Source of the DNA: an uncultured Gammaproteobacteria bacterium
GTDB lineage: Bacteria > Patescibacteriota > Patescibacteriia > Magasanikbacterales > UBA922
NCBI GenBank assembly: GCA_964345045.1
Contig: CAYFPM010000003.1
Location: 134,038-198,037, forward strand
DNA: 64,000 nt
Reading direction: 5' to 3'
Shown here one piece after another: positions 13,989-53,149 of this stretch. Both the position numbers and the translations under genes were made by a program. The notes below the pieces were generated by a model that did not search any database, was not told the origin of the DNA, and saw only the letters and a list, made by a program, of their open reading frames with translations. Position 1 is the first letter of the stretch; each line of letters begins with the position of its first letter.

Positions 13989-14075
13989 GACCTTGATATC
14001 GGTTGGCGAAGGCGGGAGTGCCCCCTCCTTCACTCCATATGCCGCCGCCGACCGTTATCAGGGTCTTTTTTTGTT
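13989..14075 (+). terminator. Long hairpin followed by a T-run; intrinsic terminator after rplT
   Basis: GACCTTGATATCGGTTGGCG ... CGCCGACCGTTATCAGGGTC (G·U-tolerant 20-bp stem with a structured interior GGAGTG..CACTCC) followed by TTTTTTT. Confidence 0.6.
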
Positions 14076-33900: not shown

Positions 33901-36900
33901 AATCTTGTTACATTTGAATCTGGAGAACCAATCCCCACTCCTCTTAAGTCCTTGATACCAGAAACTCCGCCTCTTAGAACTACAGCATAACTAGTATTTT
34001 CTTCGAGTACACTATTTATAGACAAAATCCCATCTGTCCCTACTACATTGCCAACTGTATCATAAGCCGGAGTAGCATTGGTTTCAAAAGTGACATCGCC
34101 GGCACACCACACAACTACGTTTGGATCATTGGTTCCAGAAGCATGGACTACTCCAAACCATAATCTAGCAAAAAAAGTTTTAATACCTTGCCATAATTTG
34201 TGCCACAAACTTTTTGGAGCCAAATCTGTAGCAATATCATTTAGAGCCAAAGTTCTATTAACCAAATTAGTTACATCAAATTCTCCAGCTGGACAGTTAC
34301 CTTGATTTTGTCCAGCAGTAGTTTTGTCTGCCAAAGCTTGTACCTCTCCAGATCTTATAACTCTTTTTTCAATCGTAACTTCATCCAAAAGACCATTATA
34401 TAAAGAAGTATAATTAACAGCTCCTGCACTAGAGACATTTACATTCGCTCCAATATTTAATGAATAGGTTGCAGAATTGGCGACTCCGTTTATCGGATTA
34501 TTATTGTAAGCAGCGATATTGGTAGAATCTTCTAACAAACCATCTATATACAATCTCATTTCACCGTCTCTATCCAAAGACAAGGCCACATGATGCCATC
34601 TATCATCGGCCAAATTAGAATTGGCAGTAACAGTAGCACACGCCGGAGTTTGACCATTTTGACAAATTTGACCATTTGGAACTCCATTTTGTAAATCAAG
34701 TACCCACCTGTTTGTAGAATAACCTTGAGAAGCTATAGTCTCGATCTGAGCAGTGCTGCTTGTTTTGATCCAACCATGAACTGTAAAGTCGGCAGTAGCA
34801 AAATCATAGGCCGGGACAACGCTATTTGGGGTAGCCGTATCTGGCAAACTTTGTAATCTATCCACCAAGCCATCAAAATAATAAGCACTGCTTACAATTC
34901 CTGTATCCGTGGTTACACCACCTACGTCACTCAAATTGTTTATATAAGCGTTATCTGCATTGCTGCTATTGCCTACATTTTGACTTTGGGTATAACCTTT
35001 GGCCAAAAATAAATTTCTATTTAATGTATCTTCGTCAAGAACAGTATCGAAGGTAATACTAATTGCAGTGTTTCTACACACGGGAGCAGCCAAGGCTGGT
35101 GTAGCCGCATTGGCAAATCCTTGACCATCGGCTGGGTAAGAAGAACTTCTGGTAGGCCTGTTGTAACAACAAGAATTAGTGCCTACACCATCGGTAGCAT
35201 TTGGACAATCATTAAATCTAAAAGTATTAACTCCTGAAACGTTTACCGTTCTTGGTTCGGCAAACTCGGTAAATCCACATTGCAAAGCATAATTACCCGT
35301 GCCTGTTATCTGATCGGCAAGAGGCAAAGTAATTACCGATTGACTGGTCGCATCCAAAGTTGCAATAGCAGTGGCATCAACAGTAGTTTCTTGATTACCA
35401 GTTTGTGGATTGGTGTTTCCTTGACCAATGGCTTCTACTACTTGGATTGGATTTTGACCCAAAGATTGCAAGTTGGCAATCTCTACAGCAGTGTATTCAC
35501 ACCAACTTGTTTCTCCCAAACCAACAACGCCATCACCACAAACAGAGGCTGTAGAATATCTAGAAACAGAAGATCCAGACAAAGTACAATCAACATTACA
35601 ATCTTCGTCTGTAATATCGTTACAACGCAAACGACCGGCTCCAACATCTGGTACATCGGTATTACAAATATTTTGCAATAAACATCTGTTGCTACAAGAG
35701 CTTATAGGAGCATTTGTTACAATTCCCCTACCAGGCTGAGTCGGATCGTATACAACGACAACATTAGATCCTCCACTAGAGACCACTTCACACTCTTCGC
35801 CAAATTCTATCAACCCATTACCACATACACTAGAAGCATCGGTACATTCTAGGCTGGCTCCGGCAGTAAGGTTGCCAATATTCAAACTGGCATTGACCGG
35901 ATCATCACACCAAGCTTGAGACAGTTGACTACCCAAATGTACACAAGAGTTAGAACAATATTCACTAGACTCGGCACCAGCACCACTAATTTCACAATCT
36001 TCACCAGCTTCTAGTAACCCATCTCCCCCACAAAAGGTTCCTGGGACCCCTGCAAAAGTATCGAAAGATGGAGTACCTTGATTGGTACAAGTAGCTGAAC
36101 AATTTTGCGCATTTGGAGCGGCAGGATCACATTCTTCTCCAAAAAGAGGTTCTACAATCCCATTGCCACATTGATTGGCGCCTGTCCCTACCGTGCCATT
36201 ACCCGGACGCAAACAGCTTAGATTACAACTAATCCCTGGTATTTCTGCTGTATTTGTACCTGGCACATTAGCGGCCACATCACAATCTTCGCCAGCTTCC
36301 ACTACACCATTACCACAAATAGAGCTTGGATTACTTTGGTGAGTAGCACTATCTATATCCGAACCTCCCGGCAAACAACCGTTGGTACAATTATTTTTTG
36401 GCAAAGCTGCTGTAGAAAAATTAGATACAGTGGCTATATTGGTATCGGCCACATTCCATTGCCATCCAAAACTCCAAGGATTTAGATCTTGTCCTTCTAC
36501 ATTACAACTATCTGGATTGGTTCTTGGTATTACGGTGTATTTAGTTTTTTGACCAATTACCAAAGCTGTAAAAGGATCTGGAGAAATTCTGGCATTGTCT
36601 GCCACACAAATTTCTCCAGTGGCTTTGGTTTTGAAAATCCAATTGGTAGGAGTAAGGGATGGCCCAAACGAAGTAATACCTCCGGCAGCATTTACACTAG
36701 CTACCGACAAAATTGCACCGGTTAATTCTGCATAGTACCAAGTATCGGGTTGCAAAACTGCTCCTGCCGTCGGACGGGCGTGCAGTTCTTTTCGGTTGGA
36801 TAATTGTTGGTCAACTGTAAACGGCACTCGATTATTTCTGTTTACCGTATTCGAAGTACAATTGGCGCGATCTGTACAAGTATAAACATTGAGACCATTT

Positions 36901-39900
36901 TGATAACGTCTGTCATCCATGTCTCGATTGAACTTGGCTCCCAAGGTAGCATTGGCACAAGCTTCGCTACAGTTTGGCCAAAATTCTATAGCTCTTGGGG
37001 TACCAAGATCTACAGTCAAATCGCTTACCACAGTTCCAATGTTGCTATTTTGTAATTGAGAACGACTTTCTTTTTCCAAAGTAAACGCAGTCAATCTACC
37101 ATCTAGATAATAATTATCTGGAACTCCAACAGGATTGGCGGAAAGCATACCAATCAAAATATCTCCACCAATATTTCTTACTGTAGTTGCCCCGGCATTA
37201 CCTTCTCCCACCATATAAAGTGGAGAGTTTTGAGTAACATTTCTCCACCACATACGCCAGTTAGTTCCGTTTTGGGTTATTTGAATTTCAAACTCATCAA
37301 AAAATTCTGTATCCGGAATATACCAAACCAATGGATTATTAGCATCTTGAGCAATATGATAATTACTAGAAGGTGTAGTATTGTTGTAACCTCTCTGTAT
37401 ACTTTGCCCAGTGTTTACATCGAGTGAGCTTGGGATTACCCAATTACCATTACCAATATTGGTTGGCAAAGCTTGAGACCAATTTTGGATTCTAGAGGTA
37501 ATAACAGTCATGGAAAAATTAGGCGTATCATTTTTGAAAAATCTAAAATCTCGACGACGTTGGTTTTGGCCTCTGTTACCAAAAGTTTGCAACCTTACAC
37601 TGTAGTCGCCTTTGGCTGCCACCATTTTTACTTTTTGAGCACTAGCGGCTCCGGCACCAAATTGCCAACCGTTGGCAACACTAACAGGATCATCATTATT
37701 CAAAACCATTCTAATAGTCATGGTGGCACTATTGGTGTAATCAAAAGTATAGATATTACTTGGATCTGGAATAACAATAGGATTGCCACCTACAGGTACA
37801 TCTAATGGAACCCCAGCCAAAGCCGCAAAATCAGACACCGTAGAATTACCAGTCCCAGCAGTAACTCCACCCGGTAAGCTAGCTTCTATTTGCACACTTT
37901 GAGGGGCAGTGGATCTAAATGCTCTGGCAGTAGCTCTAGAATCTCTATAACCATTGCCTGGAGCAATACTAACAGTAACTGCACTAGCAAGTGGATTGGT
38001 AGCTGCAGCTACACGCCAATTCCAACCCAAACCATCTACGTTAAGCACAGCACAAGTTTGGTCTCCTCTACCCCATAGTTTGTAATAAAGTGGTTGATTA
38101 TCTGAAACCGGATAAGCCGGATCAAGCACAGTTCCCAATCTATCGGTAACATGCGCTGGGGGTTCTATACCAGCTCCGGTTAGGGCACACATATTATTTG
38201 GCCCACCGGTTTTAAATTCAAAACAATAAGCTGTTCCAGAACCACAATTTCTAGTTGCTTGTAATGGTTGATTGACAATTCGACTACTACCAAATTCTGT
38301 TATCACTTCTTGAGATTGAATAGAGGATCCTAGTTCAACTCGGTACCAAGTATCTGGTTGCAAATTATTAGTGTTGTTTAATGGAGCTGGTCTAATAGTC
38401 AAAACTCGGCTGGTGTAATTTAGATTAACTTGATTGCTAATATCTATTTTGTTTCCTCCTGAACAATCGATTCTTCCATTGGAAGCTTCGGCACAAGTAA
38501 ACAAAGAAACATTGCCTGCAAAAGAATTTGGATCCATGTCCATATTAAACATAACGGCTATGTCTCTGTTTAGACAAACATCATCTCCTTGTTGCCAACC
38601 ATCCCATGGAGTTGGAGATGGAAAAGCTACGGCTCTGTTGCCAATCCATCTTTCTTGATTACAAGCTTCTAACACCAGTGGAACACTAGCTATACGGCCA
38701 GTAGTAAACCGCCATACATAACCACCATCACGAACTTCTCCTGGACAACTAAAGCTCGCTGGACGAAATACTCCGGCCGAAGGTCCTTCGGTACAACATC
38801 TTTGACCAGCTGGGATTTGGTTGGAAGGGATATCTCTACAGTCGGTCACTGTATATTCTACAGAATTACTAACTTGTAAATTATTTCCCGAACCTGCGGT
38901 TACTACAATTGGACCAGTTTGCATAGAATAACCATTTTGAACTGGAATTGGGGTAGTCACCGTATCGCCGGCTGTCAAAGAGTTGGCTACTGTAATTTGG
39001 TTACCACTGGTAGATAACCAAGTATTTAATTCTGTATTGGTAAGAGGATTGGCTGTAAGACTATTTCTGCCCCAAAAACGAACAGTGGGACTATTGGAAA
39101 AATTAACTCCAGTAATAGTAAGGGGGTTCACACCACCAACCGGCAAAAGCGGAGCCGGACCACTGTTTGGATTAACTGCACAGATACTAGGCAATGGAGC
39201 GCCATTGTTTACGTTTATAACACTTGTAGCGTTTGGCACACTTTGGATATTGGTATCGCCACTTTCAACAATTACATTATAACCACCAATTGCTAAATTG
39301 GCCGGTAATTCCATAATAATTTGGGTATCTTGCCAAGCTAAAGAACCACAGACTGTTGGCAAATTGGCAACAGTACAACCAGCCCCCGGACAAGTGGTAG
39401 TTCCTTGTGCCAAATAAATTGTTCCCGGAGATTGACCAAATCGACTACCGGTAATAGTAACAAAACTACCCGGAGTAGAAGAGCTAGGATTAATTGCTTC
39501 GATCACCGGAGTTTGATTTTGTAAAGTTGTTAATATTTGAAATGGAATGCCATTGCTATCTTCTCCGCTGGCAGAAGTAACAATCACGCCTACTCTACCG
39601 GGTTGTATATTGGCAGGGATAGTAGCGTCTATTTGGGTAGCCGACCAACTGGAAACCTGAGATTGTACTCCCCCAAAATTCAATTGTGCTCCACTAGCAG
39701 GGCCAAAAGATTTTCCAATAGCGGTAACATTGGTGCCAGCTATAGCGGCAGTAGCTCCGACCGGAGTAGTTTGACCAGGAGAAACTCTTACACTACACAA
39801 ACTTGGACGAACCAGACTATTGTCTTTTCTAAAAAATCCTTGTCTTGGCCCAGATCTAGAACCACGACCATCGGCAGTAGTGTCTGACAAATTGCCTCCA

Positions 39901-41546
39901 CCGGCTCTTGTAACTCTAATTACACTGTCACTATTATTTGGCAAAGCAGCGTCGTTTGGTGGGACTTCTACTATTATCCAACTATCTGTCCAAACATCTT
40001 CGGTTCCACATTGAGCCAAACTAGCCGGTACCCACTGATCCGGAGATCCATCGGTATCAGTATCTATTCCAAATTCTACAGTACCATTGGCGTCACCAAA
40101 AAATTGACCAAGAATTGTAACCCAGTTGCCACCAGCGCCATCCCAAAGATTTACATCGGTAATAAGTGGGACAGCTGCACATTGGCCAGTAGTTTGCCCT
40201 GGTGGAATTACACATCTACCAGAAGCACAATCAGCATTTTGAGTACAGCCAGCATTTTGTCTACATCCAGGATTTGTACCAAAACCAGTACCAAACTGAC
40301 AAGATTGATCTACGACAGTAAATTGAAAAGTTTGGCTGCTAAGATTACCATCTATATCGTAAACTTCTAACAAACCATCGTAAGTAACATTGGTAGCAGC
40401 ATTGGCTGCTAAAACTAGTTGATAATTATAAGTATAAGGATTGGAGGCAGTTGCTGCAGAGCCATTTGAAATAAGTGGGGCATCGTAATTTTCTATTACA
40501 GTTCCCCCACCTTGTGGAGTTAATCTAACATGAGCATACCCAATACCATTGTCGTCCGACAAATCTGCCCCGATTAAATATGTTTGCCCCCTTGGCAAAG
40601 CTGGAGCGCCACCATACTGAACTCCATTGTATGTAACAGTATTGTTTGGGATAGTCGGAACCACCGAATCCATTACTACATTAGTGTTTACTTGGAAGGT
40701 AGTAGCTGTTGGGAAATTGCCACATTGGGTAGTAGTTTGCAAAGAATTTCCTCCAGCCGATTGCAGATTTGGTTGTACGCTAATGCTGTAATTACCGGCA
40801 GACAAAGTAGCATTGATAGGCGCAGCTTCTAGCACTGTTCTAGCTGTATCTAAATATGCAAAATTAAATTCACTATTAACATTGGCTCCATCACGCAAAA
40901 TAGTTAGAACACTATCTGCAGCTGTAGCAGCCGACACAGATTGACTAAAAATTGCCCGGACTGAAAAATTATTTATGTCCACAGTTCCATTGTTTGGCGC
41001 GCTTGGAGTAATCGTTCTTACTACGAATTGTTGGCTACTATTGCCAGTACACGGGTTGAATCCTCCACCAGGCCCTCCTCCGGCTCCACACTGAGTAGGA
41101 TTGGCAGCCGCATAAGCAGGGTCACTACAATTGGCCACTACCCCCGTACCTGTAGCTGCTCCCAACTGAGTCAGTACAAATTGAGTTATAGCAAAAGCAG
41201 ATAAGATTATGACCAAACCAATACTGCCATTTATCATTATTTTCTTGGCTTGAGAAACTTTTTCTTCGTTACCTCCGGCGGTCATATATGTATAGCCCCC
41301 GTAAATCATGATTACCAAAGCAATAATCCCTAGTAATCCAAGAGCTACTCGAATAATTCTGGCAATCGTTACTCGGATATCTTGGCCTCCTAGACCTGTA
41401 CTTTGACTAACTCTACCCAAACCAAAAACATTGTTGGTCTGTGTTTGAGCCAAAACATCATTGGCAAAAAGAAAACCTAGACCAACAAAAAAGGTTAGCC
41501 CCAAAAAGATAAATATTTTTTTTAATTTTATACTTTTGTTTATCAT
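27969..41546 (-). CDS. Giant (4,525 aa) multidomain surface protein: N-terminal T4SS-pilin-like (VirB2/TrbC-topology) membrane module, Ig-like regions, LamG/ConA-like lectin domain, Cys-rich CG(N/D)G..GE(E/D)CD repeats, six-blade BNR/Asp-box propeller, Cys-rich C-terminus
   Basis: Single uninterrupted ORF. N-term: signal/anchor + helix(ALGLLGIIALVIMIYGGYTYM)-TAGGNEEK-helix(GSIGLVIILSAFAITQFVL). LamG-like ..RWHHVALSLDRDGEMRLYIDGLL.. (~34,350..34,900). Cys-rich repeats such as CGNGVVEAGEDCD, CGNGLIEFGEECE, CGDGRVDPATEQCDDGARNG, YCGDGVVQPQFEECDDGNN (~29,700..36,400). Asp-box repeats TNDGGVTW, TIDGGSTW, TIDGGRNW, TTDSGNTW, TKDGGTSW, TTDGGLSW (~30,250..30,880). Confidence 0.85.
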   Translation of the reverse strand: MINKSIKLKKIFIFLGLTFFVGLGFLFANDVLAQTQTNNVFGLGRVSQSTGLGGQDIRVTIARIIRVALGLLGIIALVIMIYGGYTYMTAGGNEEKVSQAKKIMINGSIGLVIILSAFAITQFVLTQLGAATGTGVVANCSDPAYAAANPTQCGAGGGPGGGFNPCTGNSSQQFVVRTITPSAPNNGTVDINNFSVRAIFSQSVSAATAADSVLTILRDGANVNSEFNFAYLDTARTVLEAAPINATLSAGNYSISVQPNLQSAGGNSLQTTTQCGNFPTATTFQVNTNVVMDSVVPTIPNNTVTYNGVQYGGAPALPRGQTYLIGADLSDDNGIGYAHVRLTPQGGGTVIENYDAPLISNGSAATASNPYTYNYQLVLAANAATNVTYDGLLEVYDIDGNLSSQTFQFTVVDQSCQFGTGFGTNPGCRQNAGCTQNADCASGRCVIPPGQTTGQCAAVPLITDVNLWDGAGGNWVTILGQFFGDANGTVEFGIDTDTDGSPDQWVPASLAQCGTEDVWTDSWIIVEVPPNDAALPNNSDSVIRVTRAGGGNLSDTTADGRGSRSGPRQGFFRKDNSLVRPSLCSVRVSPGQTTPVGATAAIAGTNVTAIGKSFGPASGAQLNFGGVQSQVSSWSATQIDATIPANIQPGRVGVIVTSASGEDSNGIPFQILTTLQNQTPVIEAINPSSSTPGSFVTITGSRFGQSPGTIYLAQGTTTCPGAGCTVANLPTVCGSLAWQDTQIIMELPANLAIGGYNVIVESGDTNIQSVPNATSVINVNNGAPLPSICAVNPNSGPAPLLPVGGVNPLTITGVNFSNSPTVRFWGRNSLTANPLTNTELNTWLSTSGNQITVANSLTAGDTVTTPIPVQNGYSMQTGPIVVTAGSGNNLQVSNSVEYTVTDCRDIPSNQIPAGQRCCTEGPSAGVFRPASFSCPGEVRDGGYVWRFTTGRIASVPLVLEACNQERWIGNRAVAFPSPTPWDGWQQGDDVCLNRDIAVMFNMDMDPNSFAGNVSLFTCAEASNGRIDCSGGNKIDISNQVNLNYTSRVLTIRPAPLNNTNNLQPDTWYRVELGSSIQSQEVITEFGSSRIVNQPLQATRNCGSGTAYCFEFKTGGPNNMCALTGAGIEPPAHVTDRLGTVLDPAYPVSDNQPLYYKLWGRGDQTCAVLNVDGLGWNWRVAAATNPLASAVTVSIAPGNGYRDSRATARAFRSTAPQSVQIEASLPGGVTAGTGNSTVSDFAALAGVPLDVPVGGNPIVIPDPSNIYTFDYTNSATMTIRMVLNNDDPVSVANGWQFGAGAASAQKVKMVAAKGDYSVRLQTFGNRGQNQRRRDFRFFKNDTPNFSMTVITSRIQNWSQALPTNIGNGNWVIPSSLDVNTGQSIQRGYNNTTPSSNYHIAQDANNPLVWYIPDTEFFDEFEIQITQNGTNWRMWWRNVTQNSPLYMVGEGNAGATTVRNIGGDILIGMLSANPVGVPDNYYLDGRLTAFTLEKESRSQLQNSNIGTVVSDLTVDLGTPRAIEFWPNCSEACANATLGAKFNRDMDDRRYQNGLNVYTCTDRANCTSNTVNRNNRVPFTVDQQLSNRKELHARPTAGAVLQPDTWYYAELTGAILSVASVNAAGGITSFGPSLTPTNWIFKTKATGEICVADNARISPDPFTALVIGQKTKYTVIPRTNPDSCNVEGQDLNPWSFGWQWNVADTNIATVSNFSTAALPKNNCTNGCLPGGSDIDSATHQSNPSSICGNGVVEAGEDCDVAANVPGTNTAEIPGISCNLSCLRPGNGTVGTGANQCGNGIVEPLFGEECDPAAPNAQNCSATCTNQGTPSFDTFAGVPGTFCGGDGLLEAGEDCEISGAGAESSEYCSNSCVHLGSQLSQAWCDDPVNASLNIGNLTAGASLECTDASSVCGNGLIEFGEECEVVSSGGSNVVVVYDPTQPGRGIVTNAPISSCSNRCLLQNICNTDVPDVGAGRLRCNDITDEDCNVDCTLSGSSVSRYSTASVCGDGVVGLGETSWCEYTAVEIANLQSLGQNPIQVVEAIGQGNTNPQTGNQETTVDATAIATLDATSQSVITLPLADQITGTGNYALQCGFTEFAEPRTVNVSGVNTFRFNDCPNATDGVGTNSCCYNRPTRSSSYPADGQGFANAATPALAAPVCRNTAISITFDTVLDEDTLNRNLFLAKGYTQSQNVGNSSNADNAYINNLSDVGGVTTDTGIVSSAYYFDGLVDRLQSLPDTATPNSVVPAYDFATADFTVHGWIKTSSTAQIETIASQGYSTNRWVLDLQNGVPNGQICQNGQTPACATVTANSNLADDRWHHVALSLDRDGEMRLYIDGLLEDSTNIAAYNNNPINGVANSATYSLNIGANVNVSSAGAVNYTSLYNGLLDEVTIEKRVIRSGEVQALADKTTAGQNQGNCPAGEFDVTNLVNRTLALNDIATDLAPKSLWHKLWQGIKTFFARLWFGVVHASGTNDPNVVVWCAGDVTFETNATPAYDTVGNVVGTDGILSINSVLEENTSYAVVLRGGVSGIKDLRGVGIGSPDSNVTRLDDSILFRTGTDICKLNSVGILPNKYIFSAPNTSTVFVANAVSTNDQSIVSIPGQYEWSWDWQPQGDQIFSIPSTVPPATCGNGVLDVGEDCDGPLLRATQCSAIPGRNYTGGNLSCNVTTCQYDVSACTPSLSPTDTSIIKIASNNLEGSRTASANATVTFDSDTQTNQAGEVFSGKTDLTALFCERPWPPVAYFPFEEGVPFGANVNNDGVDAAGVFDGTALPAANVAAGTGGVNGQYFNFGTSYCADAGASGDTSDDLPYLKPFVFGNLVTAGTCSRTNTSCFADTDCSGQLNTCQGALASTSQIQRTGLLKQMLFFNDTNEDVVGIQIFQNTGRDSVRQWYEKQPELGFVPSDFRDVRIAGYEAITDGDNYYVNALNQSSGGGIFNNVYLFSINQNASESTREVFDQLLNGLEFNINISDVGYCLANTVSAATTRVGETGALPISSVQCADNFDCKDVDGTPLPNTNGICSSSKTKFIRDWERLHSIREAQQKLSSLRDASGNINVPTLSSGSYIPGYSTSKWPSWGLLGSQVGGLKTDPVNKWSSCGVCAQGISTSCVSNLDCPGVGNTCTALGVCSQTVPQGCGSDADCPGAGNTCSLIDNQTCWDEQSSSFVCPRDSNIFEYSAVSNQNYTVHAQLEYFTSQSNIVQEFIDPNSFSTNRVCSAPFQVQSPFSAVCGDGVLNPATEQCDPPGRTQLGTTGITGVATAGVCAYQGTNQSQICNTDVDCSISLFENPVPGSSGSIVSGRPLFNPDVSVEMGSGQTVCQYLNAVMYPDSSQSNTPPAVLPAVSCNTSADCVNILVNQIATGRANYSTFHPGLNSGTNVAKVPRNPASKLDFTCAPLFQAKAFKDISKAQCVGGTIQNPVIGACPAQQVAQAVCDSQCQLQYGSCQAGGVCGDGRVDPATEQCDDGARNGTYGNCASDCRGPHPQYCGNGGSPDIVGGRAVEYCEIANFQGINAKGFCSVERDGFGVQTSGTNQALSAVHFVDEQNGWAGGNNSTLLRTNDGGVTWQTQNLPTIANTHNVNSIKFVDVNTGWLLDSNNNLVWRTIDGGSTWVQSNTTFPRLGSGTFTLPNIYFDMNFVDRNNGWVSASGNRIFRTIDGGRNWTQGNALPNNFNSIHFVSATEGWAASGGSTTDNNNQTYNAAGFIYRTTDSGNTWNLSYQYYSPGQPGNSHLMRGVYFVDSQDGWAVGDSGIILSTKDGGTSWQIQQSPVNTNLQKVYFVDNFDGYIIDVNNNILKTTDGGLSWVRANTNVGSTITLNDLHASGVGAWTVGSQGTILKTGLRLCAVDSDCGANNTCLAGDTPTYHIDQQNSCAFDCQGPGGYCGDGVVQPQFEECDDGNNINNDACSNLCLVRAAAQSSAIISQSVGCGNGVTDPGEACDLGSQNGVACIPSYNESCTYCSNSCDAVLTVDAAGYCGNRELEIITTDSAGQPVYEACEVDGGFILIDPDVTKPDAQRYVRTQCTGSNYNQPTNFFTVNVGQRACQNSCTTYIDNCIPCGSKNISQGGVAPSLAILNVIEDGAAINATAWATATNAYLRVREAGFYVARGEMNLQLYSGQSTQSYTTQKRFLNTGNIVDGGLESNALCSGTYGVEFNNSVTQTVQGSVYNYPVNSDSQTVGHEILVSPAVAPGTIRVVVRWTEAENNEGVTFGGALYNESFSNDPNPNRRQPITYGFATSIIPNGICSRIAQDTAGYWVPSGCSPSLTNGGNGAVWVHSRNNLQKTFSQTFTIDTAELVDARPYAFFVESIGQISSVPIINFENSNLQVEIYESRVGQNPGLSIYKPTRNFNITTAAGTSSNSLARYWQVFNLSATNSGYTITPVEQIKSGFNEVLSQLIGSTSQGSTSPNTVVACTAADWNCQPFPTSCPVSGTRSRVCTLINTSCANASAVQPPLSQSCTPDCRAGNLVGCVNQSDCESVAGGVWNTVSGQSSCVVPNSVASGGACSVDAACQTGLSCVNNLCS

Positions 41547-46589: not shown

Positions 46590-46739
46590 ACGAATTATTT
46601 TTTATTATAAAACAAATACTTTGCTTATACAAACAAAAGATTCCTCCTCGGAATCTTTATCTACCTACCAAATCAAAAGTATTTATTTTCATAATTTTTT
46701 TCTGGAAACAACCGTATTCTGTTTTCATTATAGTCAGTG

Positions 46740-46813
46740 TGGATCCAAGAAGATTCGAACTTCTGACCTCTACAATGTCAATGTAGCGCTCTAACCAACT
46801 GAGCTATGGATCC
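46740..46813 (-). tRNA. tRNA-Val (GAC)
   Basis: Reverse complement GGATCCA|TA|GCTCAGTTGGTTAGAGC|G|CTACA TTGACAT TGTAG|AGGTC|AGAAG TTCGAAT CTTCT|TGGATCC|A. Anticodon GAC. Confidence 0.88.
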
Positions 46814-46831
46814 TTAAAAGGATCTTGTTGT

Positions 46832-46960
46832 GGGCGATCGAGCCAGCCTCCGGCTCCTGCCCGCCAGTCGCTTGGGCTTCAGACCATGGCAGGCGGGGAT
46901 CACCCGTAGGGTGAGAATTGAACCCTGAACCTCGTCATTGATTTGCGATAACAATCTTTT
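46832..46960 (-). pseudogene. tRNA-Ile 3'-half fragment/pseudogene with a ~75-nt GC-rich insertion
   Basis: 13-nt GTGGGCGATCGAG (the tRNA-Ile 3' acceptor/T-stem, on +) is duplicated at 46832..46844 and 46977..46989. The copy at 46832 continues with the related ..GAGAATTGAACCCTGAACCTCGTCATT.. but is interrupted by a GC-rich insert (CCAGCCTCCGGCTCCTGCCCGCCAGTCGCTTGGGCTTCAGACCATGGCAGGCGGGGATCACCCGTAGGGT) and lacks a 5' half. Confidence 0.55.
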
Positions 46961-46977
46961 AACAAAACAACAATCTG

Positions 46978-47051
46978 TGGGCGATCGAGGAATTGAACCT
47001 CGGACCTCGTCATTATCAGTGACGCGCTCTAACCATCTGAGCTAATCGCCC
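46978..47051 (-). tRNA. tRNA-Ile (GAT)
   Basis: Reverse complement GGGCGAT|TA|GCTCAGATGGTTAGAGC|G|CGTCA CTGATAA TGACG|AGGTC|CGAGG TTCAATT CCTCG|ATCGCCC|A. Anticodon GAU. Confidence 0.88.
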
Positions 47052-47143
47052 GTGTAAACGTGGGAAAAGTATAGCTTACTCAAGTTTATTTGTCAACAAT
47101 AAAACCCGCTCCTACATATGTTGGAACGGGTTTATGCTCTTGT

Positions 47144-47467
47144 TTAGATGTTTAGGTTCTCGACAGCACTTGTGTCTACATCGTCGCTCATACTTGGAGC
47201 AGCGCTTTGTGGGGCGCGTCCACCTTCTGGTTCATTGATTTTCAAGTTAACGCGAGCGTTATTCTTGGCACCAACGATTTTTAGAAGTGTACGAATAGAG
47301 CGAGCGGTTTGACCTTGACGACCGATAACGTAACCCATGTCACTTGGATTGATATCCAAAGTGATAAGTACGCCACGTTCGTCAACTGTTCTGGTAGTTT
47401 TTACATCGTCTGGATTGTTTACAATCGCTTTGACAACGTAATCCACGAACTGTTGATCGCTTTCCAT
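47144..47467 (-). CDS. KH-domain RNA-binding protein (KhpA/YlqC-like)
   Basis: ..VIGRQGQTARSIRTLLKIVGAK.. GxxG KH motif. 107 aa. Typical neighbour of rpsP. Confidence 0.75.
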   Translation of the reverse strand: MESDQQFVDYVVKAIVNNPDDVKTTRTVDERGVLITLDINPSDMGYVIGRQGQTARSIRTLLKIVGAKNNARVNLKINEPEGGRAPQSAAPSMSDDVDTSAVENLNI

Positions 47468-47712
47468 AATTTCTAACTTTTACTGTATAACGAACTGTCG
47501 ACATGTCCAAAACTCAGTGTCCGGACCAGTTCTTGTGGAAATAAGTATAACACAAAATTTGTTGTCTGTCAATTTGGCCGATCTGGCTGTTGATAAACAA
47601 TTTTTTAGTATTATTCGACCCCCCCTGACCTCCCCTTTGGAAGGGGAGGAACTAACTAAGGGACTCCTTTTATAAATAAAAAACGCCTCTGTTTGAGGAC
47701 GTTTTTTTATTT

Positions 47713-48249
47713 TTAAGCTTCCTTTTTTTCTTCAGTTTTTTCTGCTGGTTTTTCTTCTTTCACCTCGCCAGAGCCTTCGGCGTCGGCGGGTTCTTTTGCT
47801 TCTTCGGTAGGAGCTTCAGAAGCTTCGGCTTCTTCTGTAGCTTTGGCTTCAGCAGCAGCTTTTTCGGCCTCTTCTGCAGCTTTGGCTTCTTCCTCTGCAG
47901 CCTTGGCAGCTTCGGCAGCTTGTTTTTTGGCTTCTTCGTCTGCAGCTTTTTTCTCATCAATCTTAGCTTGTCTTTTTTTGCTAATAGCGACTGATTTCTT
48001 TTTGTTGCCGGAAACGATTCCTTGGCTTAGTAGTAAATTGTGAACTGTCTCAGATGCTTGGGCACCATTTTTGATCAATTCTTTTATTTTTTCTACTTTT
48101 AGATCTATAACTTTTGGATTGGCTACTGGATTGTAAATTCCTAGTATTTCCAAAGCACGGCCTTGGGTATCTTTTATTTTTTCACTGGCAACCAAGCGAT
48201 AAGACGGGCTTTTTTTCTTACCAATTCTTTGTAATCTAATCATTAACAT
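47713..48249 (-). CDS. rpsP: 30S ribosomal protein S16 with a ~95-aa Ala/Glu/Lys-rich C-terminal tail
   Basis: N-terminal MLMIRLQRIGKKKSPSYRLVASEKIKDTQGRALEILGIYNP is canonical S16. The tail is low-complexity (AEEEAKAAEEAEKAAAEAKA..) and contains the EPADAEGSGEVKEE repeat unit. Confidence 0.88.
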   Translation of the reverse strand: MLMIRLQRIGKKKSPSYRLVASEKIKDTQGRALEILGIYNPVANPKVIDLKVEKIKELIKNGAQASETVHNLLLSQGIVSGNKKKSVAISKKRQAKIDEKKAADEEAKKQAAEAAKAAEEEAKAAEEAEKAAAEAKATEEAEASEAPTEEAKEPADAEGSGEVKEEKPAEKTEEKKEA

Positions 48250-48505
48250 AATTTTTTTGTGAAGTTATCAATAAATTAATTTATTGACGGTTGTAATCCA
48301 TTTGGGTTTGTGAATCCCACTGGATTGAGAGCGACGCTACTATACCTTATATATATGTAAATGTCAAGAGAATGACTCCTAAATCAAAAAACCACCATAA
48401 CTGGTGATCTTTTGATTGGGGCCGAGATTCTAGAGTACTCGGCGAAAAAACTCCTTCTCTAGCGAAGCTCTGCTAAAGGTGCCCAGGGGGTGGGCTTTTT
48501 GTGGG

Positions 48506-48766
48506 TCAGTCCGCAGCGTCCTCGCTGCTTTCCGGGGCGATCTCGTCGACCCCCTCATCAGACAAGGAAGCCTCGTCGTCGAGTCGTTGCATCTCATAGA
48601 AGAGACCAGCAGCCAGGGCGTGAGCTGCTTTGGTCGATTCTTCGACCATCTTGGCTAGACGCCTAGCCTCTTCAGGAGTTTTAACTTCCCATGGTTTAGG
48701 CAAAACTACCTCCTGGTTCGATCCTACGATCGAAGTTAAGGGTCCTCTTGTCTTGCGACACCTCAA
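48506..48766 (-). CDS. Hypothetical small acidic protein in the moderate-GC accessory block (true start uncertain, possibly internal MVEEST..)
   Basis: ORF in the compositionally distinct 48.3..50.07-kb block. No homology recognised. Confidence 0.3.
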   Translation of the reverse strand: MRCRKTRGPLTSIVGSNQEVVLPKPWEVKTPEEARRLAKMVEESTKAAHALAAGLFYEMQRLDDEASLSDEGVDEIAPESSEDAAD

Positions 48767-48904
48767 CCGTTGGTCTTCCAGGGGGGCTAAGCTTGCGGAC
48801 TAAATTGTGGGGAACCTACTTACCTCGCAAGGTGTTCGGTGTGTGTCCTCTCAGGACTCTTCGTCTTGCGACTCCGAATCCTCTAAGATTTCAGCCCAAA
48901 GACC

Positions 48905-49078
48905 CTAGTTGAGTCTATGAGCCTCGAGGTTTTCCAGTTCGAGTGCCTGGCTAATGAGGAGTAATGCGACCTCCTCGCTAGCAGCCACGAGATCTTCTCG
49001 GGCATCTTCAAAAGCCCGATTTTGCTCCTCTCTCGACAGCTCACCAAAGCGTTTCGGATGTTGGGTGTTGTTGCTCAT
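48905..49078 (-). CDS. Small hypothetical protein (57 aa, MSNNTQHPKRFGELSREEQNRAFEDAREDLVAASEEVALLLISQALELENLEAHRLN)
   Basis: GGAGA Shine-Dalgarno 6 nt upstream of the ATG at 49078. Below the ORF-track size threshold. Helical acidic protein; an antitoxin/RHH-like function is speculative. Confidence 0.35.
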   Translation of the reverse strand: MSNNTQHPKRFGELSREEQNRAFEDAREDLVAASEEVALLLISQALELENLEAHRLN

Positions 49079-49223
49079 CTTCAATCTCCTTCCAGAATTT
49101 GATTATTCTTAGATAGACTAAAGTAGAGCTGTCGAACAAAGCAATATACAACAAAAGGCCTCCTTTGTCAAGATCCCCCCACAAACAGTTGCTAAAATAA
49201 GCCAAATATGCTAGCGTTAAGAT

Positions 49224-49571
49224 ATGACTACCGATGAGCAACAAGCTCGTATCAAAAAAAGACTGCGTCATTTGAGGCTGCAACAACGAAACGGTCCCGC
49301 TCCAGAATCTGCCTCTCCAGAAACCATAGCAACCATTTCGGATGCCCTAGACCATGCAGTCGCAGTAACCGTGGAACGAAGCCTGGCAGAACATGGACGG
49401 ACGTCCCCATACGGTTCTGCCCAAGAGACCATGGAAGAAATCCTCGACGAATTGGCCGAGGAACCCGCCGACGCCGAAGGCTCTGGCGTGGTGAAAGAAG
49501 AACGAGATCCTACCGCCGATCTGGACGACGAATATCGTCGGCAACCTTCAAGTGGGGGAAAGAAAAAGTGA
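49224..49571 (+). CDS. Hypothetical protein (115 aa) carrying the EPADAEGSGVVKEE repeat unit
   Basis: ORF in the moderate-GC block. Contains a 42-nt segment nearly identical to one in rpsP and related to one in smc. Confidence 0.4.
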   Translation: MTTDEQQARIKKRLRHLRLQQRNGPAPESASPETIATISDALDHAVAVTVERSLAEHGRTSPYGSAQETMEEILDELAEEPADAEGSGVVKEERDPTADLDDEYRRQPSSGGKKK

Positions 49572-49768
49572 AGAACCTCAAGGCAGCAGTGAAATATCTT
49601 CCTTTGTTAGTAGTGGGGATTATGGCAATAGCCATTTTCATCCCCCTACTCCTCACAAAAGCCTTGCAAAGAGCACTCTTGGACATTTTGAAAGTCATCT
49701 GCCATCTGGATCCCACAATGTATCTATACGGTGTTCTGATCTTTCTCTTCCCAAATGAATGGGACTAA
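49568..49768 (+). CDS. Small membrane protein (66 aa, 2 TM)
   Basis: Overlaps the stop of the upstream ORF by 4 nt. Hydrophobic helices LPLLVVGIMAIAIFIPLLL and YLYGVLIFLF. Confidence 0.35.
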   Translation: MKNLKAAVKYLPLLVVGIMAIAIFIPLLLTKALQRALLDILKVICHLDPTMYLYGVLIFLFPNEWD

Positions 49769-50074
49769 GTAGTCAAACCTGCCATCTACAATCGGGGCAA
49801 GAAGGAAGGAGACCGATGGCACAATCAAAAAACAGCTTTGTAAAAGGCTGTTTTTTGTTTTTAGAATAGACTTTCTAGTCTAGTTCCTCCCCTGCCAAGG
49901 GGAGGGCAGGTGGGGTTTGACACAAGCTGGCTCCATAGTCCCAGAGGGCTATGGAGCCTATATGCTAAAATCATAGACCAAGCAAAATAGCTCCACAGGG
50001 CTACGCCACTATGGAGCTGGCCGGAGATCCTTCATCCCGACTTTGGTCGGGATTCAGGATGACGTGGTGTAAAA

Positions 50075-53000
50075 CTATTTAGACTCCTCTACCACCTTCT
50101 CTGCTTGCTCTAGCTTGACCGAAAGCAGATGACTAATCCCGTCGTTACCCATAGTTACTCCGTAGAGTGCATCGGTAGCGTGCATGGTAGCGCGGTTGTG
50201 AGTAATAAGAATAAATTGAGAACTCTTGGCCAACTCTTTGAGAATCTTCGTAAATCTTAGAGTGTTGGCTTCGTCTAGAGCGGCCTCTACCTCGTCTAGT
50301 ATTACAAACGGTGGTGGATTGGTATGGAGGATAGCACAGATAAGAGCAATCGAAGTCATCGTGCGCTCTCCACCAGAGAGAGCTGCCAAATTTTTGATTT
50401 TTTTGCCTGGCGGACAAGCATTAACCTCGATCCCAGTCAGAATCTTCTTTCTTCTTTTTTTCTTTGGCTCATCTTCCAGTTCTTCATCTTCTTCACTCTC
50501 TTCTTTTACCACGCCAGAGCTTTCAGCGGAGGCGGGTGCTTCCACCCCATATACTTCAACTAAATCTGCTTTACCTCCTTCAAACAACAGACTAAAGTAT
50601 CTCTGAAATTCTTTTTTGATTTCTTTAAAACCTTTGGCGCGGCGTTTTTTCATTATCTCATCTAGCTCTACTACCAACTTTTCCAAATCTTTCATAGCTT
50701 TTTCTAGGTCGTCTAGCTGGCTGGTTAGGCCTTCGTGACGTTCGGCTGTTTCTTTGTACTCGGCTACGACTTCTTCGTCAATCCCACCAATAAGAGAAAG
50801 TTTGTATTTTAATTTTTGAATTTGGGTTTGCAATTCTTCTAGTTTTTCTAATTCAACTAATGGCGGTTGTCTTTTTACAATCGATTCAATTGAAAAATGT
50901 AATTCTTGATAAACTTCGTTTAACAAGTCTTCTTGCTTGGTTTCTATTTTGGCCAGAGATACTCTACCATCGTTTCGTTTGTTACTTATGTCGTTAAGTT
51001 TGTTTTGCTCGGCTTGCATAGCATCTTGCAAAGCAAAAATTCTTTCTTTTTTCTTTTCTTCTTCTTCATTAAACTCGGAAATTTTATTTTTAATTCCCAA
51101 AATTTTGTTCTCTAACTCGTTTATTTTTTTGCCCAAATCATCTTTTTGCACAGAGATATCTTTCATAGCTGCCGAGTAGTCGCTCTCGCTCATGGTAGAA
51201 AGATTCATTTCTTGTTCCAAAGAAGCAATTTCCGAATCAATTTCTTTTTTTTGATCACTAATGTATTGTTGTTTTTTTAATTCTACTTCGGTGTTGGTTT
51301 GCAAATCACGAAGCAAATCTTGCATTCTTTCATAATCAATTTCGGTTCTGTCCAATTCTCTTTTTGTTTCTTCTATTTTTTCGGTGTGATCCATTAACTC
51401 TCCCTGCATCATATGTGGCGCATGAGCTTGTGAAAAACTAAGTCCGGTAGTTCTTTTTCTACGGAAACCACCTTTCATACTACCACTAGTTTCTAATATG
51501 TCCCCGTCTAGGGTTACCATGCGGATTCTGCCAATCCCGATTTCTCTAGCCACATCTATACTCTCTACAATAATAGTGTTGCCAAAAACATAAGAAAAAA
51601 TATTTTCAAATCTTTTGTCAAAACTGGCCAAGTCTGTAGCCAAACCATGCACCCCCGGATGAGCCAAGTATCTGTCTATATCGTGTGGTACAAATCTAGG
51701 TTTAATTTTGCTAATTGGCAAAAATGTGGCAACTCCCAATTGATTATCACGAAGATATCTAATTCCTTGTTTGGCCACTTCGTCGTCGGCTACTACTACA
51801 GAAGACAGATGTGCTCCTGCCGCTACGTCCATAGCCAATTGATACTTCTCGGCCACTTCGGCTAGTTGAGCTACTGCTCCAAAAACTCTGCCAAATCTAT
51901 TTTGCTCTTCTAGTATAGCTTGTACTGCCCGGAGGCCGGTAAGCTGAAAAAAGTTTTGCTCACTTTTGGCAGTAGCGAGCGAGGACTCCAAACTAGATAA
52001 TTTGGATTTCAATTCTGTTTTGTTTATACCAAGCTCTTCTACTTCGCTTTTTTTACCAGCAATTTCTGTATGCAAATTTTGCAAGTGATCATTTACTTGC
52101 TTTAATTCTTTTTCTATTTTTTGTTGTTCGGTTTTAAGAGAAGTTATTTTGTTTTCTAGCCAACTAATATTGTGCTTGCCGGCTTTGCTGTACTCTACTT
52201 GCATCTTGCCGGTAAGAGCAGCATGATCTCTTTCCAAAGCATTTTTTTCTTGAGTTAATTCTTGAAAAGAACTTTGAAGTTCATTGTAAATTTCTTGCCG
52301 AGAAGATTCTTTGGCCAGATCAGATAATTCTAATTGAATTTTTTCTAACTTACCTTGCGAATCTGTATAATCACTTTCGATTGTTTTTAGGTTGTTTTGA
52401 ATTTCGTCTAGCTGAGTTTGATTGTGACTCCACAAAGTAGCGTAGTAAGACTCTTGAGATTCGCGCAAAGTGTTTTCTACTTCGTGTCTTTCTTCCAGCT
52501 TTTTTACTTGTCGAGACAAACTCTTTAGGCGAGGAGAAACTTCGTTCAAAAGGGCTTCGGCTTGGGTAATATTTTCTTTGGTTCGAGAAAGTTTGAGAAT
52601 TGCTTGATGACGTTTGATCTGGAATTCTTTTATACCAAAAGCTTCATCAAAAAAATCTTTTCTCTCGGCCGGACTTTGAAGTAGCATTTTGTCTATCATC
52701 CCCTGCCCTACCACACTATAAGATCCTTGGCCAAACTGGGCCTTGGCCAAAAGTAACTGCAAATCCAACAATCTAACCTGGTGGCCATTGATAATATATT
52801 CACCATCTCCCTCACGATAAACCTTTCTTTCTATAACCAATTCTTCTTGGTCTATTGGCAATGTAGCATCACTATTATCTATAATCATTTTTACACTGGC
52901 AAATCCCATTTTTCCTTTGGCAGCCGAACCACCAAATATAATGTCTTCGCTCTTCTTACCACGCAGCATTTTCATGCTTTGCTCACCCAGCACCCAGCGA

Positions 53001-53149
53001 ATAGCATCGGCCACATTGGATTTGCCACTACCGTTTGGCCCTACTATAGCCGTAATGCTTTGGGAGGCCTTGGTACCAGGCATAAATGCCAAAACAGTCT
53101 TTTCGGCAAAAGACTTGAATCCTTGTATTTCTAGACTCTTTAGGTACAT
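50075..53149 (-). CDS. smc: Chromosome partition protein SMC (with an in-frame acidic insertion near the C-terminal head)
   Basis: N-terminal Walker A (GPNGSGKSNVADAI), long coiled coils, hinge region, and the C-terminal signature ..LSGGERTMTSIALICAIL.. with Walker B FVILDEVEAALD. An ..APASAESSGVVKEESEEDEELEDEPKKKRRKK.. insertion lies before the signature motif. Confidence 0.92.
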   Translation of the reverse strand: MYLKSLEIQGFKSFAEKTVLAFMPGTKASQSITAIVGPNGSGKSNVADAIRWVLGEQSMKMLRGKKSEDIIFGGSAAKGKMGFASVKMIIDNSDATLPIDQEELVIERKVYREGDGEYIINGHQVRLLDLQLLLAKAQFGQGSYSVVGQGMIDKMLLQSPAERKDFFDEAFGIKEFQIKRHQAILKLSRTKENITQAEALLNEVSPRLKSLSRQVKKLEERHEVENTLRESQESYYATLWSHNQTQLDEIQNNLKTIESDYTDSQGKLEKIQLELSDLAKESSRQEIYNELQSSFQELTQEKNALERDHAALTGKMQVEYSKAGKHNISWLENKITSLKTEQQKIEKELKQVNDHLQNLHTEIAGKKSEVEELGINKTELKSKLSSLESSLATAKSEQNFFQLTGLRAVQAILEEQNRFGRVFGAVAQLAEVAEKYQLAMDVAAGAHLSSVVVADDEVAKQGIRYLRDNQLGVATFLPISKIKPRFVPHDIDRYLAHPGVHGLATDLASFDKRFENIFSYVFGNTIIVESIDVAREIGIGRIRMVTLDGDILETSGSMKGGFRRKRTTGLSFSQAHAPHMMQGELMDHTEKIEETKRELDRTEIDYERMQDLLRDLQTNTEVELKKQQYISDQKKEIDSEIASLEQEMNLSTMSESDYSAAMKDISVQKDDLGKKINELENKILGIKNKISEFNEEEEKKKERIFALQDAMQAEQNKLNDISNKRNDGRVSLAKIETKQEDLLNEVYQELHFSIESIVKRQPPLVELEKLEELQTQIQKLKYKLSLIGGIDEEVVAEYKETAERHEGLTSQLDDLEKAMKDLEKLVVELDEIMKKRRAKGFKEIKKEFQRYFSLLFEGGKADLVEVYGVEAPASAESSGVVKEESEEDEELEDEPKKKRRKKILTGIEVNACPPGKKIKNLAALSGGERTMTSIALICAILHTNPPPFVILDEVEAALDEANTLRFTKILKELAKSSQFILITHNRATMHATDALYGVTMGNDGISHLLSVKLEQAEKVVEESK

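Follow-up and report, generated by a model that had tools for sequence, protein, structure and literature searches.

How a short GC-rich sequence comes to be read in the same frame in three unrelated genes of the AT-rich genome of an ultra-small (CPR) bacterium is the question raised by this locus. In the 64,000-nt stretch of DNA that we analysed (the window), the first-pass annotation had reported a 42-nt repeat in frame in the genes for ribosomal protein S16 and SMC and in the small ORF115, and had held a 28-nt exact match between the S16 and ORF115 copies to be beyond chance. Both claims stand. A pattern search allowing up to three mismatches returned exactly two copies, in rpsP and ORF115 (Table 1), where none were expected from 100 dinucleotide-preserving shuffles; as had been noted, the two differ at a single site, position 29 (A/T), so their first 28 nt are identical. 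The third copy is present as proposed, matching the ORF115 copy at 35 of 42 positions and the S16 copy at 34; its coordinates, given as about 50503–50546, are corrected in Table 1. All three copies lie within ORFs and share one reading frame, giving EPADAEGSGEVKEE in S16, EPADAEGSGVVKEE in ORF115 and APASAESSGVVKEE in SMC, the last, as claimed, just before the ABC signature motif (about 35 residues ahead of LSGGE). A profile built from 10 copies found no others in the 64 kb.

Table 1. Positions of the repeat copies and of the features around them in the window.
Feature	Position	Strand	Remarks
rpsP (ribosomal protein S16), with long Ala/Glu/Lys-rich tail	47713..48249	-	PF00886 homologues
smc	50075..53149	-	Synteny and Pfam assignments
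Element copy 1	47752..47793	-	rpsP (S16) C-terminal tail, 12 codons short of the stop; inverted-repeat arm
Element copy 2	49461..49502	+	Within ORF115; 41/42 identical to copy 1; opposite inverted-repeat arm
Element copy 3	50498..50539	-	SMC acidic loop just upstream of the ABC signature motif; 35/42
GC-rich island (about 52–56%) between smc and rpsP	48250..50074		Composition; synteny in relatives
ORF115, orphan ORF in the GC-rich island	49224..49571	+	No recognisable RBS
Second inverted-repeat arm	47618..47688	-	Downstream of rpsP; terminator tail and GC hairpin TAGTTCCTCCCCTTCCAAAGGGGAGG (47629–47654)
Second inverted-repeat partner	49845..49916	+	Downstream of ORF115 and a 66-aa ORF; hairpin 49881–49906
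Putatively invertible segment between the inverted 42-mers (1667 nt)	47794..49460		Contig L014

The element is compositionally atypical and foreign-looking in its host: its GC3 is 0.57, compared with 0.23 and 0.08 in the flanking parts of the S16 tail and 0.28 in the host genes. Codon choice within the element is about 1.7–2 sd less likely than random synonymous draws. Misassembly of the window can be rejected, as the region 46877–53083, which takes in the S16 and ORF115 copies, is 100% identical in contigs that two assembly pipelines produced from three sibling samples (L001, L002, L003, L015 and L022).

When public genomes and metagenomes were scanned with exact patterns, near-identical copies (83–95%) turned up in frame in further genes: the hinge of L7/L12 at the same site in three genomes (L004, L006 and L009; 36–38/42), the C-terminal tail of RpoC (L005), an unknown protein (L012) and an N-terminal extension of S9 (L013), where the copy matches that in S16 at 39/42 positions. 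Another copy lies antisense inside a Phage_int_SAM_1 (integrase-like) ORF (L007, L008 and L010), where it is read as FTSPEPSAAAG. The family is sparse, with only two matches to a 26-nt pattern among 185,579 species genomes. The 3' arm and the purine tract that ends the element (RAARGARGA) are nearly invariant across copies, and an upstream stretch of 12–15 nt (CCCGCCnnCGCY), outside the search pattern, is conserved among those recovered; in rplL, ascertainment by the search pattern accounts for part of the conservation at nucleotide level. The element's rare GC-ending codons are kept in AT-rich hosts. Same-site copies in the L7/L12 hinge of three genomes and in the S16 tail of several fit vertical inheritance with nucleotide-level constraint equally as well as mobility.

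The 42-mer folds into an imperfect hairpin of 12 bp with the purine tract after it (minimum free energy -15.3 kcal/mol, z = -2.6), and the fold extends to the family: over 10 copies, 90.8% of cells were paired, compared with 31–42% in slid controls. A change from C–G to U–A affects one stem pair in three of the copies, and variation through G–U is seen at three pairs; the observed covariation score was reached by 57 of 500 shuffles and lends weak support. A Gly/Ser change in the peptide goes together with a synonymous change in an Ala codon, by which a base pair is restored. The purine tract holds a Shine–Dalgarno-like GAGGUGA, and the element has no match in Rfam.

The S16 and SMC genes of relatives give the copies a relative age. 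In the S16 tails of L019 (two tandem copies) and L020, CCCGCCTCCGCTGAA-GCTCCGGCGGAC stands at the same relative position (nhmmer E = 2e-4); this variant equals the SMC copy give or take a 1-nt indel, and the shifted frame in which it is read gives SAEAPADKEE. Most S16 orthologues lack the element. Since the S16 tails of some relatives have a diverged version in the matching place, the S16 copy is probably old and not a recent insertion. The first-pass annotation had reasoned that a diverged segment at the same position in orthologues would mean an ancient shared peptide; the segment is indeed there in some relatives, but the frame shift means that the peptide is not shared. The SMC orthologues of L019, L021 and L023 lack the element, and the SMC copy is probably lineage-specific. 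It had been taken for an insertion, but the loop is no longer than in the orthologues, so the element looks like a replacement within a variable acidic loop and not a clean insertion. The ORF115 copy is probably recent.

What was suggested of the repeat by analogy with known in-frame elements, namely that it is a palindromic nucleotide-level repeat, thus agrees with its occurrence in unrelated genes of different genomes. A uniform reading frame does not extend to the whole family, the copy in the integrase-like gene being antisense and the S16-tail variant of the relatives frame-shifted. Across the family, the entity that is conserved and copied is a DNA or RNA sequence and not a peptide.

The data show a family of repeats with hairpin potential, the genes in which it sits and a single contig with a recombinant junction (described below). 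We favour, with moderate confidence, the reading that the 42-mer belongs to an RPE/REP-like, low-copy family of hairpin repeats that is tolerated in disordered coding segments and also serves as a recombination substrate. Its members would be imperfect palindromes, short and GC-rich, in which the purine tract follows a hairpin of about 30 nt, and they would be scattered over the mostly AT-rich genomes of uncultured, Patescibacteria-like (CPR-like) bacteria. Inside genes, copies would persist only where a frame is free of stops and the peptide that it adds to a disordered loop, tail or linker does no harm, this peptide being acidic and Gly/Ser-containing in the usual sense frame and Ser/Pro/Ala-rich in the single antisense case. 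The S16 copy would be an old resident, the SMC copy an older lineage-specific acquisition and the ORF115 copy would have been derived recently from that in S16, possibly through an inverted duplication of the rpsP 3' end together with its terminator and second hairpin region. Copying may take place at the hairpin, by gene conversion or template switching, or may depend on an unseen trans-acting enzyme.

No mobilising enzyme came to light: no transposase, recombinase or invertase was found among the ORFs scanned or inspected in the 64 kb, and the flanks of 10 copies show neither target-site duplications, which had been proposed as a check, nor a common target. The element's boundaries are fuzzy, without sharp common ends, and its sole symmetry is the internal hairpin. 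We rejected a MITE, which would have terminal inverted repeats and target-site duplications. We also rejected a diversity-generating retroelement, whose template and variable repeats would be about 100 nt or more and differ at adenines; here a 42-nt repeat with a single A/T difference lies in unrelated genes and not in a C-type lectin target, and no RT-like ORF was seen.

Three known systems invite comparison. The Rickettsia palindromic elements (RPEs) reportedly lie in frame in conserved protein-coding genes, as Ogata and colleagues are said to have described in 2000. RPEs are mentioned in PMC1779305 and PMC10969869. Like them, our element is palindromic and selfish-looking, sits in frame in conserved genes of a reduced AT-rich genome, is translated as an extra tolerated peptide segment and has no known transposase. 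RPEs are about 100–150 bp long, number tens of copies per genome and occur in Rickettsia only, whereas the present element is 36–42 nt long, low-copy, GC-rich and common to different uncultured genomes, and seems to replace disordered sequence instead of adding a surface loop. Its size, the want of homology to RPE-1 to RPE-8 and its Magasanikbacteria/Patescibacteria-related host place it outside the RPEs, to which it is analogous only. REP and REPIN sequences are mobilised by RAYTs, which are IS200/IS605-like Y1 transposases. REPs, too, are imperfect palindromes (20–40 nt) that form hairpins in single-stranded DNA or RNA, but they are extragenic and high-copy, with a conserved GTAG 5' motif and a flanking RAYT gene, none of which was seen here: all copies are inside ORFs, there are three in the 64 kb, and no Y1 transposase was found among the window ORFs scanned or inspected. 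In yeast mitochondria, GC clusters lie in frame within the coding sequence of var1. Such clusters are likewise short, recombinogenic GC-rich hairpin repeats of an AT-rich genome that spread by an unknown mechanism and occasionally come to lie in frame inside coding sequence; hairpin-forming repeats are found in other organelle genomes as well, e.g., the RHEs of sponge mtDNA (PMC2800124). GC clusters and RHEs are organellar and high-copy, whereas our element is bacterial and low-copy and sits in nuclear-type housekeeping genes.

The hairpin with its purine tract could instead be a functional mRNA motif, a shared cis-acting element selected in mRNAs for the transcription and translation machinery (rpsP, rpsI, rplL and rpoC) and occasionally copied elsewhere. 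It might bind a protein or an RNase, make translation pause or mark mRNAs for co-regulation. The element is in sense orientation in 7 of 8 independent gene contexts, stem positions 3, 5 and 6 keep their pairing via G–U, which works on the sense RNA strand only, and the pair 15–19 shows a double change; the near-invariance of the 3' arm and purine tract and the constant position, both in rplL across three diverged genomes and in several S16 tails, point the same way. Yet an RNA tag of this kind accounts poorly for the antisense copy in the integrase-like gene, for the copies in an ORFan and in smc and for the lack of the element in most S16 orthologues, the Rfam search and the covariation statistics give it little help, and the 7:1 sense bias could merely reflect the frames that give tolerable peptides. 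We regard this alternative as unlikely.

The surroundings of the ORF115 copy bear on its history. Between smc and rpsP, a relative (L021) has a gap of 200 nt, and the interval differs in other relatives; by this synteny, the 1.8-kb GC-rich island is evidently inserted. It has no plasmid match. ORF115 has no Pfam family above threshold and, among 1.84e9 representatives, no homologue but itself and the chimera P0121. Beyond the 42-mers lies a second inverted pair, its arms 59/74 identical and found only twice in the window; a terminator-like site (49826–49857) precedes the hairpin on the ORF115 side. A history without any mobile family is conceivable: a segmental duplication in inverted orientation, taking in the 3' end of rpsP, would have made the ORF115 copy, and the copies in SMC and other genomes would be acidic low-complexity linkers that became alike by ectopic gene conversion among GAA/GCN-rich tails. 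The second pair, downstream on both sides in the same order, is consistent with such a history, as are the fuzzy element ends, the unchanged SMC loop length and the Ala/Glu/Lys-rich disordered character of all host sites. The similarities to the S9 extension and to L7/L12 hinges elsewhere, the antisense copy in an unrelated gene and the GC-rich codons in AT-rich hosts are left unexplained, and we consider a purely local origin quite unlikely.

On the hairpin-repeat reading that we prefer, the inverted S16 and ORF115 copies may also recombine through their 28 shared bases and flip the segment between them. This segment holds the S16 body, its promoter-like site (48367–48339), the 5' part of ORF115 and two small ORFs with good RBSs (48506–48703 and 48905–49078, both on the minus strand); the inverted arms are 42–55 nt long at a spacing of 1641–1667 nt. 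Inversion would give S16 the 22 C-terminal residues of ORF115 in return for its own last 12; the two products would remain in frame, and each would retain a terminator. Contig L014, from a fourth sample (ERR2281801), has the junction expected of this event: its positions 1–506 match window 48997–49502 (plus strand) and positions 465–4392 match 47793–43866 (minus strand), an exact ORF115-5'/repeat/S16-tail junction, encoded as P0121, with the S16-side variant at position 29 and 3 SNPs relative to the window. The suggestion that the element recombines gains support from this contig. The three sibling samples have the standard orientation, and a search for the reciprocal junction found none on record. 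The inversion may be a real population polymorphism, seen in a single MEGAHIT contig that could be a chimeric assembly, the 28-nt exact repeat being near the likely minimum k, as judged from the "k127" in the contig name. The inverted state is plausibly viable, because khpA has its own promoter-like site and there is a terminator on each side.

Chanin et al. (bioRxiv 10.1101/2023.03.11.532203, "Intragenic DNA inversions expand bacterial coding capacity") described intragenic and partial-intergenic invertons, in which inverted repeats within coding sequence recode proteins by inversion and keep the frame, as proposed here. The 42-mers could accordingly be sites of a dedicated invertase, forming a regulated phase-variation switch for the C-termini of S16 and ORF115. 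Flanking inverted repeats, apparently both orientations among sibling-sample assemblies, in-frame fusions, near-identical arms of the kind that repeated recombination would homogenise and an imperfect palindrome like many recombinase core sites would all suit a programmed switch. Yet those invertons were detected from reads in both orientations and ascribed to invertases, whereas we have one junction on one contig, no serine or tyrosine recombinase domain in the scanned ORFs and none evident in the 64-kb ORF list, and arms that belong to a dispersed repeat family occurring singly in other genomes, where such inversion is impossible; the swapped tails, too, are without evident function. We think a programmed inverton distinctly improbable. 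Selection for a short linear peptide motif, PAxAEGSGEVKEE, whose nucleotide similarity would reflect recent common origin, draws on the same frame in seven contexts and on exposed disordered positions throughout, and is largely refuted and barely credible in view of the antisense and frame-shifted readings, the pair-restoring synonymous change coupled to Gly/Ser and the conserved rare codons.

If confirmed, these observations would mean that essential conserved genes of the smallest known bacteria are open to selfish or structural DNA, with disordered tails and linkers as landing pads for tiny hairpin repeats; the unusual tails and inserts seen in CPR ribosomal proteins would become easier to understand, and inversion would provide a simple way, independent of enzymes, to recode the ends of proteins. 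Such repeats can also break or mis-join metagenome assemblies within rpsP, rplL and rpoC, which serve as phylogenomic and binning markers. More tentatively, Patescibacteria may harbour an undescribed class, of at least two families, of GC-rich hairpin elements of about 30–42 nt in disordered segments of essential genes (the S16 and RpoC tails, the SMC loop, the L7/L12 hinge and the S9 extension among them), which would move between genes and genomes without an enzyme of their own and act as portable recombination sites able to flip DNA and swap protein termini, giving intragenic invertons without a dedicated invertase, or alternatively as an RNA-level tag on the mRNAs of the expression machinery; we hold this to be possible but doubtful. 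A different hairpin element (GGACAGGTC..GACCTGTCC), 27/31 of it common to both copies, occupies the same two host sites in relatives, the S16 tail in L023 and the SMC loop in L021.

The unit GAACCCGCCGACGCCGAAGGCTCTGGCG(A/T)GGTGAAAGAAGAA occurs at two sites of the window, in the S16 tail and in ORF115, an orphan ORF between smc and the S16 gene rpsP, and a related copy lies in smc (see the table of features). No match to the 42-mer was expected in shuffled sequence. Among the inverted pairs that a repeat finder reported for the window, none is longer than that of the S16 and ORF115 copies (I1), and the same tool joined the ORF115 copy to that in smc (I2). The reading frame is identical in the three copies, and the 42-nt repeat reported in frame in three genes by the first-pass annotation is real; the smc copy was rightly placed close to the ABC signature, its exact position being 50498-50539 (-) instead of about 50503-50546. 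The codons of the element are atypical of its host: GC3 is 0.57, compared with 0.28 genome-wide and with 0.23 and 0.08 in the flanking parts of the tail, and the likelihood of the codon choice is about 1.7 to 2 sd below that of random synonymous draws. Misassembly had been named as a possible source of the copies, but is ruled out for this region by five contigs that match positions 46877-53083 at 100% identity and come from Logan and ENA assemblies of three sibling samples (PRJEB17505).

In the fold of the unit (-15.3 kcal/mol, z=-2.6), positions 3-32 make an imperfect 12-bp hairpin, and a purine tract with a Shine-Dalgarno-like GAGGUGA follows it. Across 10 copies, 90.8% of the cells are paired, compared with 31-42% in slid controls. 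Three independent copies have U-A in place of C-G at pair 15-19, a switch that ties a synonymous Ala change to a Gly/Ser change in the peptide, while three other pairs vary through G-U only. A shuffle control was weak (57/500), and we therefore regard the hairpin as conserved and selection on it as unproven. A terminator function was dropped, as no U-tract follows the hairpin on either strand; diversity-generating retroelements, CRISPR spacer capture and parS, dif or uptake sequences were dropped on anatomy, and Campbell-type integration because it would yield direct, not inverted, repeats.

Further copies came from exact-pattern scans that covered 185,579 species genomes as well as JGI and ENA metagenomes. 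Each lies at a linker, loop or tail of the host protein, and the upstream 12-15 nt were also conserved though the pattern did not require them. A match to a eukaryotic HCN-channel N-terminus (L011) covers the 3' half of the pattern only and was judged a chance hit, since a pattern this long had been expected in advance to give about one. Two pattern scans of viral collections and a blastn search against phages gave no real hits and thus no sign of a phage vector; querying a 5.8-billion protein index with the three peptides in tandem returned nothing usable. No orthologue is common to the window and the loci of these hits (L004-L013), so the divergence of the element cannot be compared with that of the hosts for these genomes. 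Between two higher-GC contigs (L007 9463-9527 and L012 114-176), the similarity around the element reaches 65 nt at 81%; the unit common to some copies is thus longer than 42 nt and its ends are not sharp.

Locations of the element, its relatives and the surrounding features (window positions unless a locus is named)
Feature	Location	Strand	Details
S16 copy	47752-47793	-	ORF 47713-48249; peptide EPADAEGSGEVKEE
ORF115 copy	49461-49502	+	ORF 49224-49571; peptide EPADAEGSGVVKEE
SMC copy	50498-50539	-	ORF 50075-53149; peptide APASAESSGVVKEE, acidic loop before LSGGE; 35/42 identical to ORF115 copy
Island	48250-50074		two small ORFs with good ribosome-binding sites, structured spacer, ORF115, 66-aa membrane ORF
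Second inverted pair	47618-47688 and 49845-49916		59/74 identical; unique in window
L7/L12 hinge	L004, L006, L009		same site in three diverged genomes
RpoC C-terminal tail	L005
S9 N-terminal extension	L013		39/42 vs S16 copy
Unknown protein	L012
177-aa ORF with Phage_int_SAM_1 domain	L007, L008, L010	antisense	read as FTSPEPSAAAG
Second hairpin element TGAAGGGACAGGTCGCGACCTGTCCGTACAG, S16 tail	L023 3486-3516
Second hairpin element TGAAGGGACAGGTCGCGACCTGTCCGTACAG, SMC pre-signature loop	L021 7380-7410

Whether the segment is a lineage-specific insertion has different answers for the two conserved hosts. The peptide is missing in most of the 120 closest S16 homologues, but in four of them (P0007, P0008, P0022 and P0026) SAEA(P/T)(P/A)DKE precedes the stop by 4-12 residues. 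The DNA of three was retrieved: the tail is encoded by CCCGCCTCCGCTGAA-GCTCCGGCGGAC in the contigs of P0026 (L019, where it stands in two tandem copies) and P0008 (L020), and only a degenerate remnant, GCTGAGGCTCCAGCGGAC, is left in that of P0022 (L021). This variant is the element itself, offset from the SMC copy by a 1-nt indel and hence in a shifted reading frame (nhmmer E=2e-4). Given its presence at the same tail position, the S16 site is probably old, and what persists is the nucleotides, not the peptide. The SMC orthologues of L019, L021 and L023 lack the element and have loops of similar length (28-35 residues); the SMC copy is thus lineage-specific, as the insertion idea had it, and looks like a replacement rather than a net insertion. 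A different GC-rich hairpin, GGACAGGTC..GACCTGTCC, occurs both in L023, in the S16 tail (SEGTGRDLSVQ), and in L021, in the SMC loop (EGTDLDLSVQ), with 27 of 31 nt in common. Both sites also host the element of the window, here in different CPR genomes, which suggests that small hairpin repeats colonise these disordered coding segments recurrently in this clade.

The S16 homologues place the organism among Magasanikbacteria-like Patescibacteria (CPR). As the gene order clpP-DHH-smc-rpsP-khpA-lepB-hisS is kept in relatives and only 200 nt separate smc from rpsP in L021, the interval 48250-50074 is an insertion; it is also GC-rich (52-56% vs ~37-40%). Accessory insertions seem to concentrate between smc and rpsP, as at a hotspot. 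None of the island ORFs, ORF115 included, has a Pfam or PHROG family, no plasmid matched the island, and at neither the gathering nor the E<=1 threshold did Rfam give a match over 47500-50200. Positions 48704-48904 (-), the spacer that separates the two small ORFs, have an unusually good fold (-69 kcal/mol, z=-2.85) with no Rfam match and, by reading of the sequence, two similar hairpins with GCAA loops. Upstream of rpsP, one relative has a HicA-like toxin gene with a partner ORF (L020 1841-2402), and others have M23 peptidase or DUF2207 genes.

Besides itself, ORF115 has a single relative among 5.8e9 or 1.84e9 proteins, the chimera P0121, made up of ORF115 residues 1-86, EPADAEGSGEVKEE and the S16 tail KPAEKTEEKKEA. 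In its contig L014 (sample ERR2281801, MEGAHIT 'k127'), positions 1-506 equal window 48997-49502 (+) and positions 465-4392 equal 47793-43866 (-), continuing into khpA, lepB and hisS. This junction is the one expected from inversion of the segment 47794-49460 by crossover in the first 28 nt, in agreement with a recombining element, one of the options originally offered. It was seen once, in one contig, and L014 could itself be a chimeric assembly, since an exact repeat of 28 nt is near the minimum k that the contig name makes likely for that assembly. No reciprocal chimera of S16 body and ORF115 tail is on record, exact look-ups of four variants giving no match, nor did an exact look-up of the 1024-aa SMC. 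L014 differs from the window by 3 SNPs whereas all other contigs are identical to it, which makes it a distinct haplotype. Two of its SNPs are T-to-G changes 4 nt apart (46793 and 46797) in the tRNA-Val gene (46739-46813 -), and the third is in hisS (45372). The arms of the second inverted pair are found downstream on either side. Both orientations should be viable, as each side of the segment has a terminator-like site and khpA a promoter-like site of its own; after inversion, S16 would lose neither its folded domain nor the greater part of its tail.

We lean, at slightly better than even, towards a hairpin repeat similar to RPEs, REPs or GC clusters that survives in harmless frames and is copied between genes and genomes. 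The peptides would be tolerated within disordered segments, copying would proceed at the hairpin, by template switching or gene conversion, or else through a trans-acting enzyme encoded elsewhere, and the two youngest copies, being inverted, would recombine with each other. The likeness to RPEs proposed at first extends to the palindrome and to further in-frame copies in other genes and genomes, but among the ORFs of the 64-kb window that were scanned or inspected, none could be recognised as a recombinase or transposase that would account for mobility. Alternatively, the element could be an RNA-level cis element common to mRNAs of the expression machinery, with which a 7:1 sense bias and the tolerance of G-U in the stems are consistent. 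Other rivals are a purely local inverted duplication with gene conversion among acidic tails and a programmed inverton served by an unseen invertase. The antisense and frame-shifted copies largely refute a functional peptide cassette. Palindromic repeats in frame and inversions within genes are each of a known kind. The novelty of the repeat lies in the combination of a very small element, essential genes of CPR bacteria, presence in several genomes and recurring host sites, and possibly in its action as an enzyme-independent, tail-swapping inverted repeat; no description of such a combination was found in the searchable literature.

Other GC-rich or structured spots were seen in the window. 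A second, stronger island (6001-7600, ~60% GC vs ~37%) looks like foreign DNA and contains an orphan 488-aa ORF (6037-7503 -), without Pfam or PHROG family, that has a Gly/Lys/Asn-rich low-complexity region near its C-terminus. Between tRNA-Val and tRNA-Ile, an 87-nt GC-rich stretch (46827-46913) is structured (-40 kcal/mol; whole spacer 46814-46976, -55.7 kcal/mol, z=-2.0), and Logan contigs L015 and L022 both stop within it, at 46877. A strong GC-rich hairpin (13998-14050, -30 kcal/mol) stands in AT-rich surroundings between rplT and a 157-aa ORF without Pfam family. A gene of the 23S rRNA-intervening-sequence protein family (PF05635; 55345-55701 +) adjoins clpP, and the tmRNA (11991-12390) adjoins a putative smpB ORF (11471-11917), assigned from the sequence without a Pfam scan. 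The giant 4525-aa ORF at 27969-41546 has positional counterparts in relatives with weak T4SS-pilin Pfam hits.
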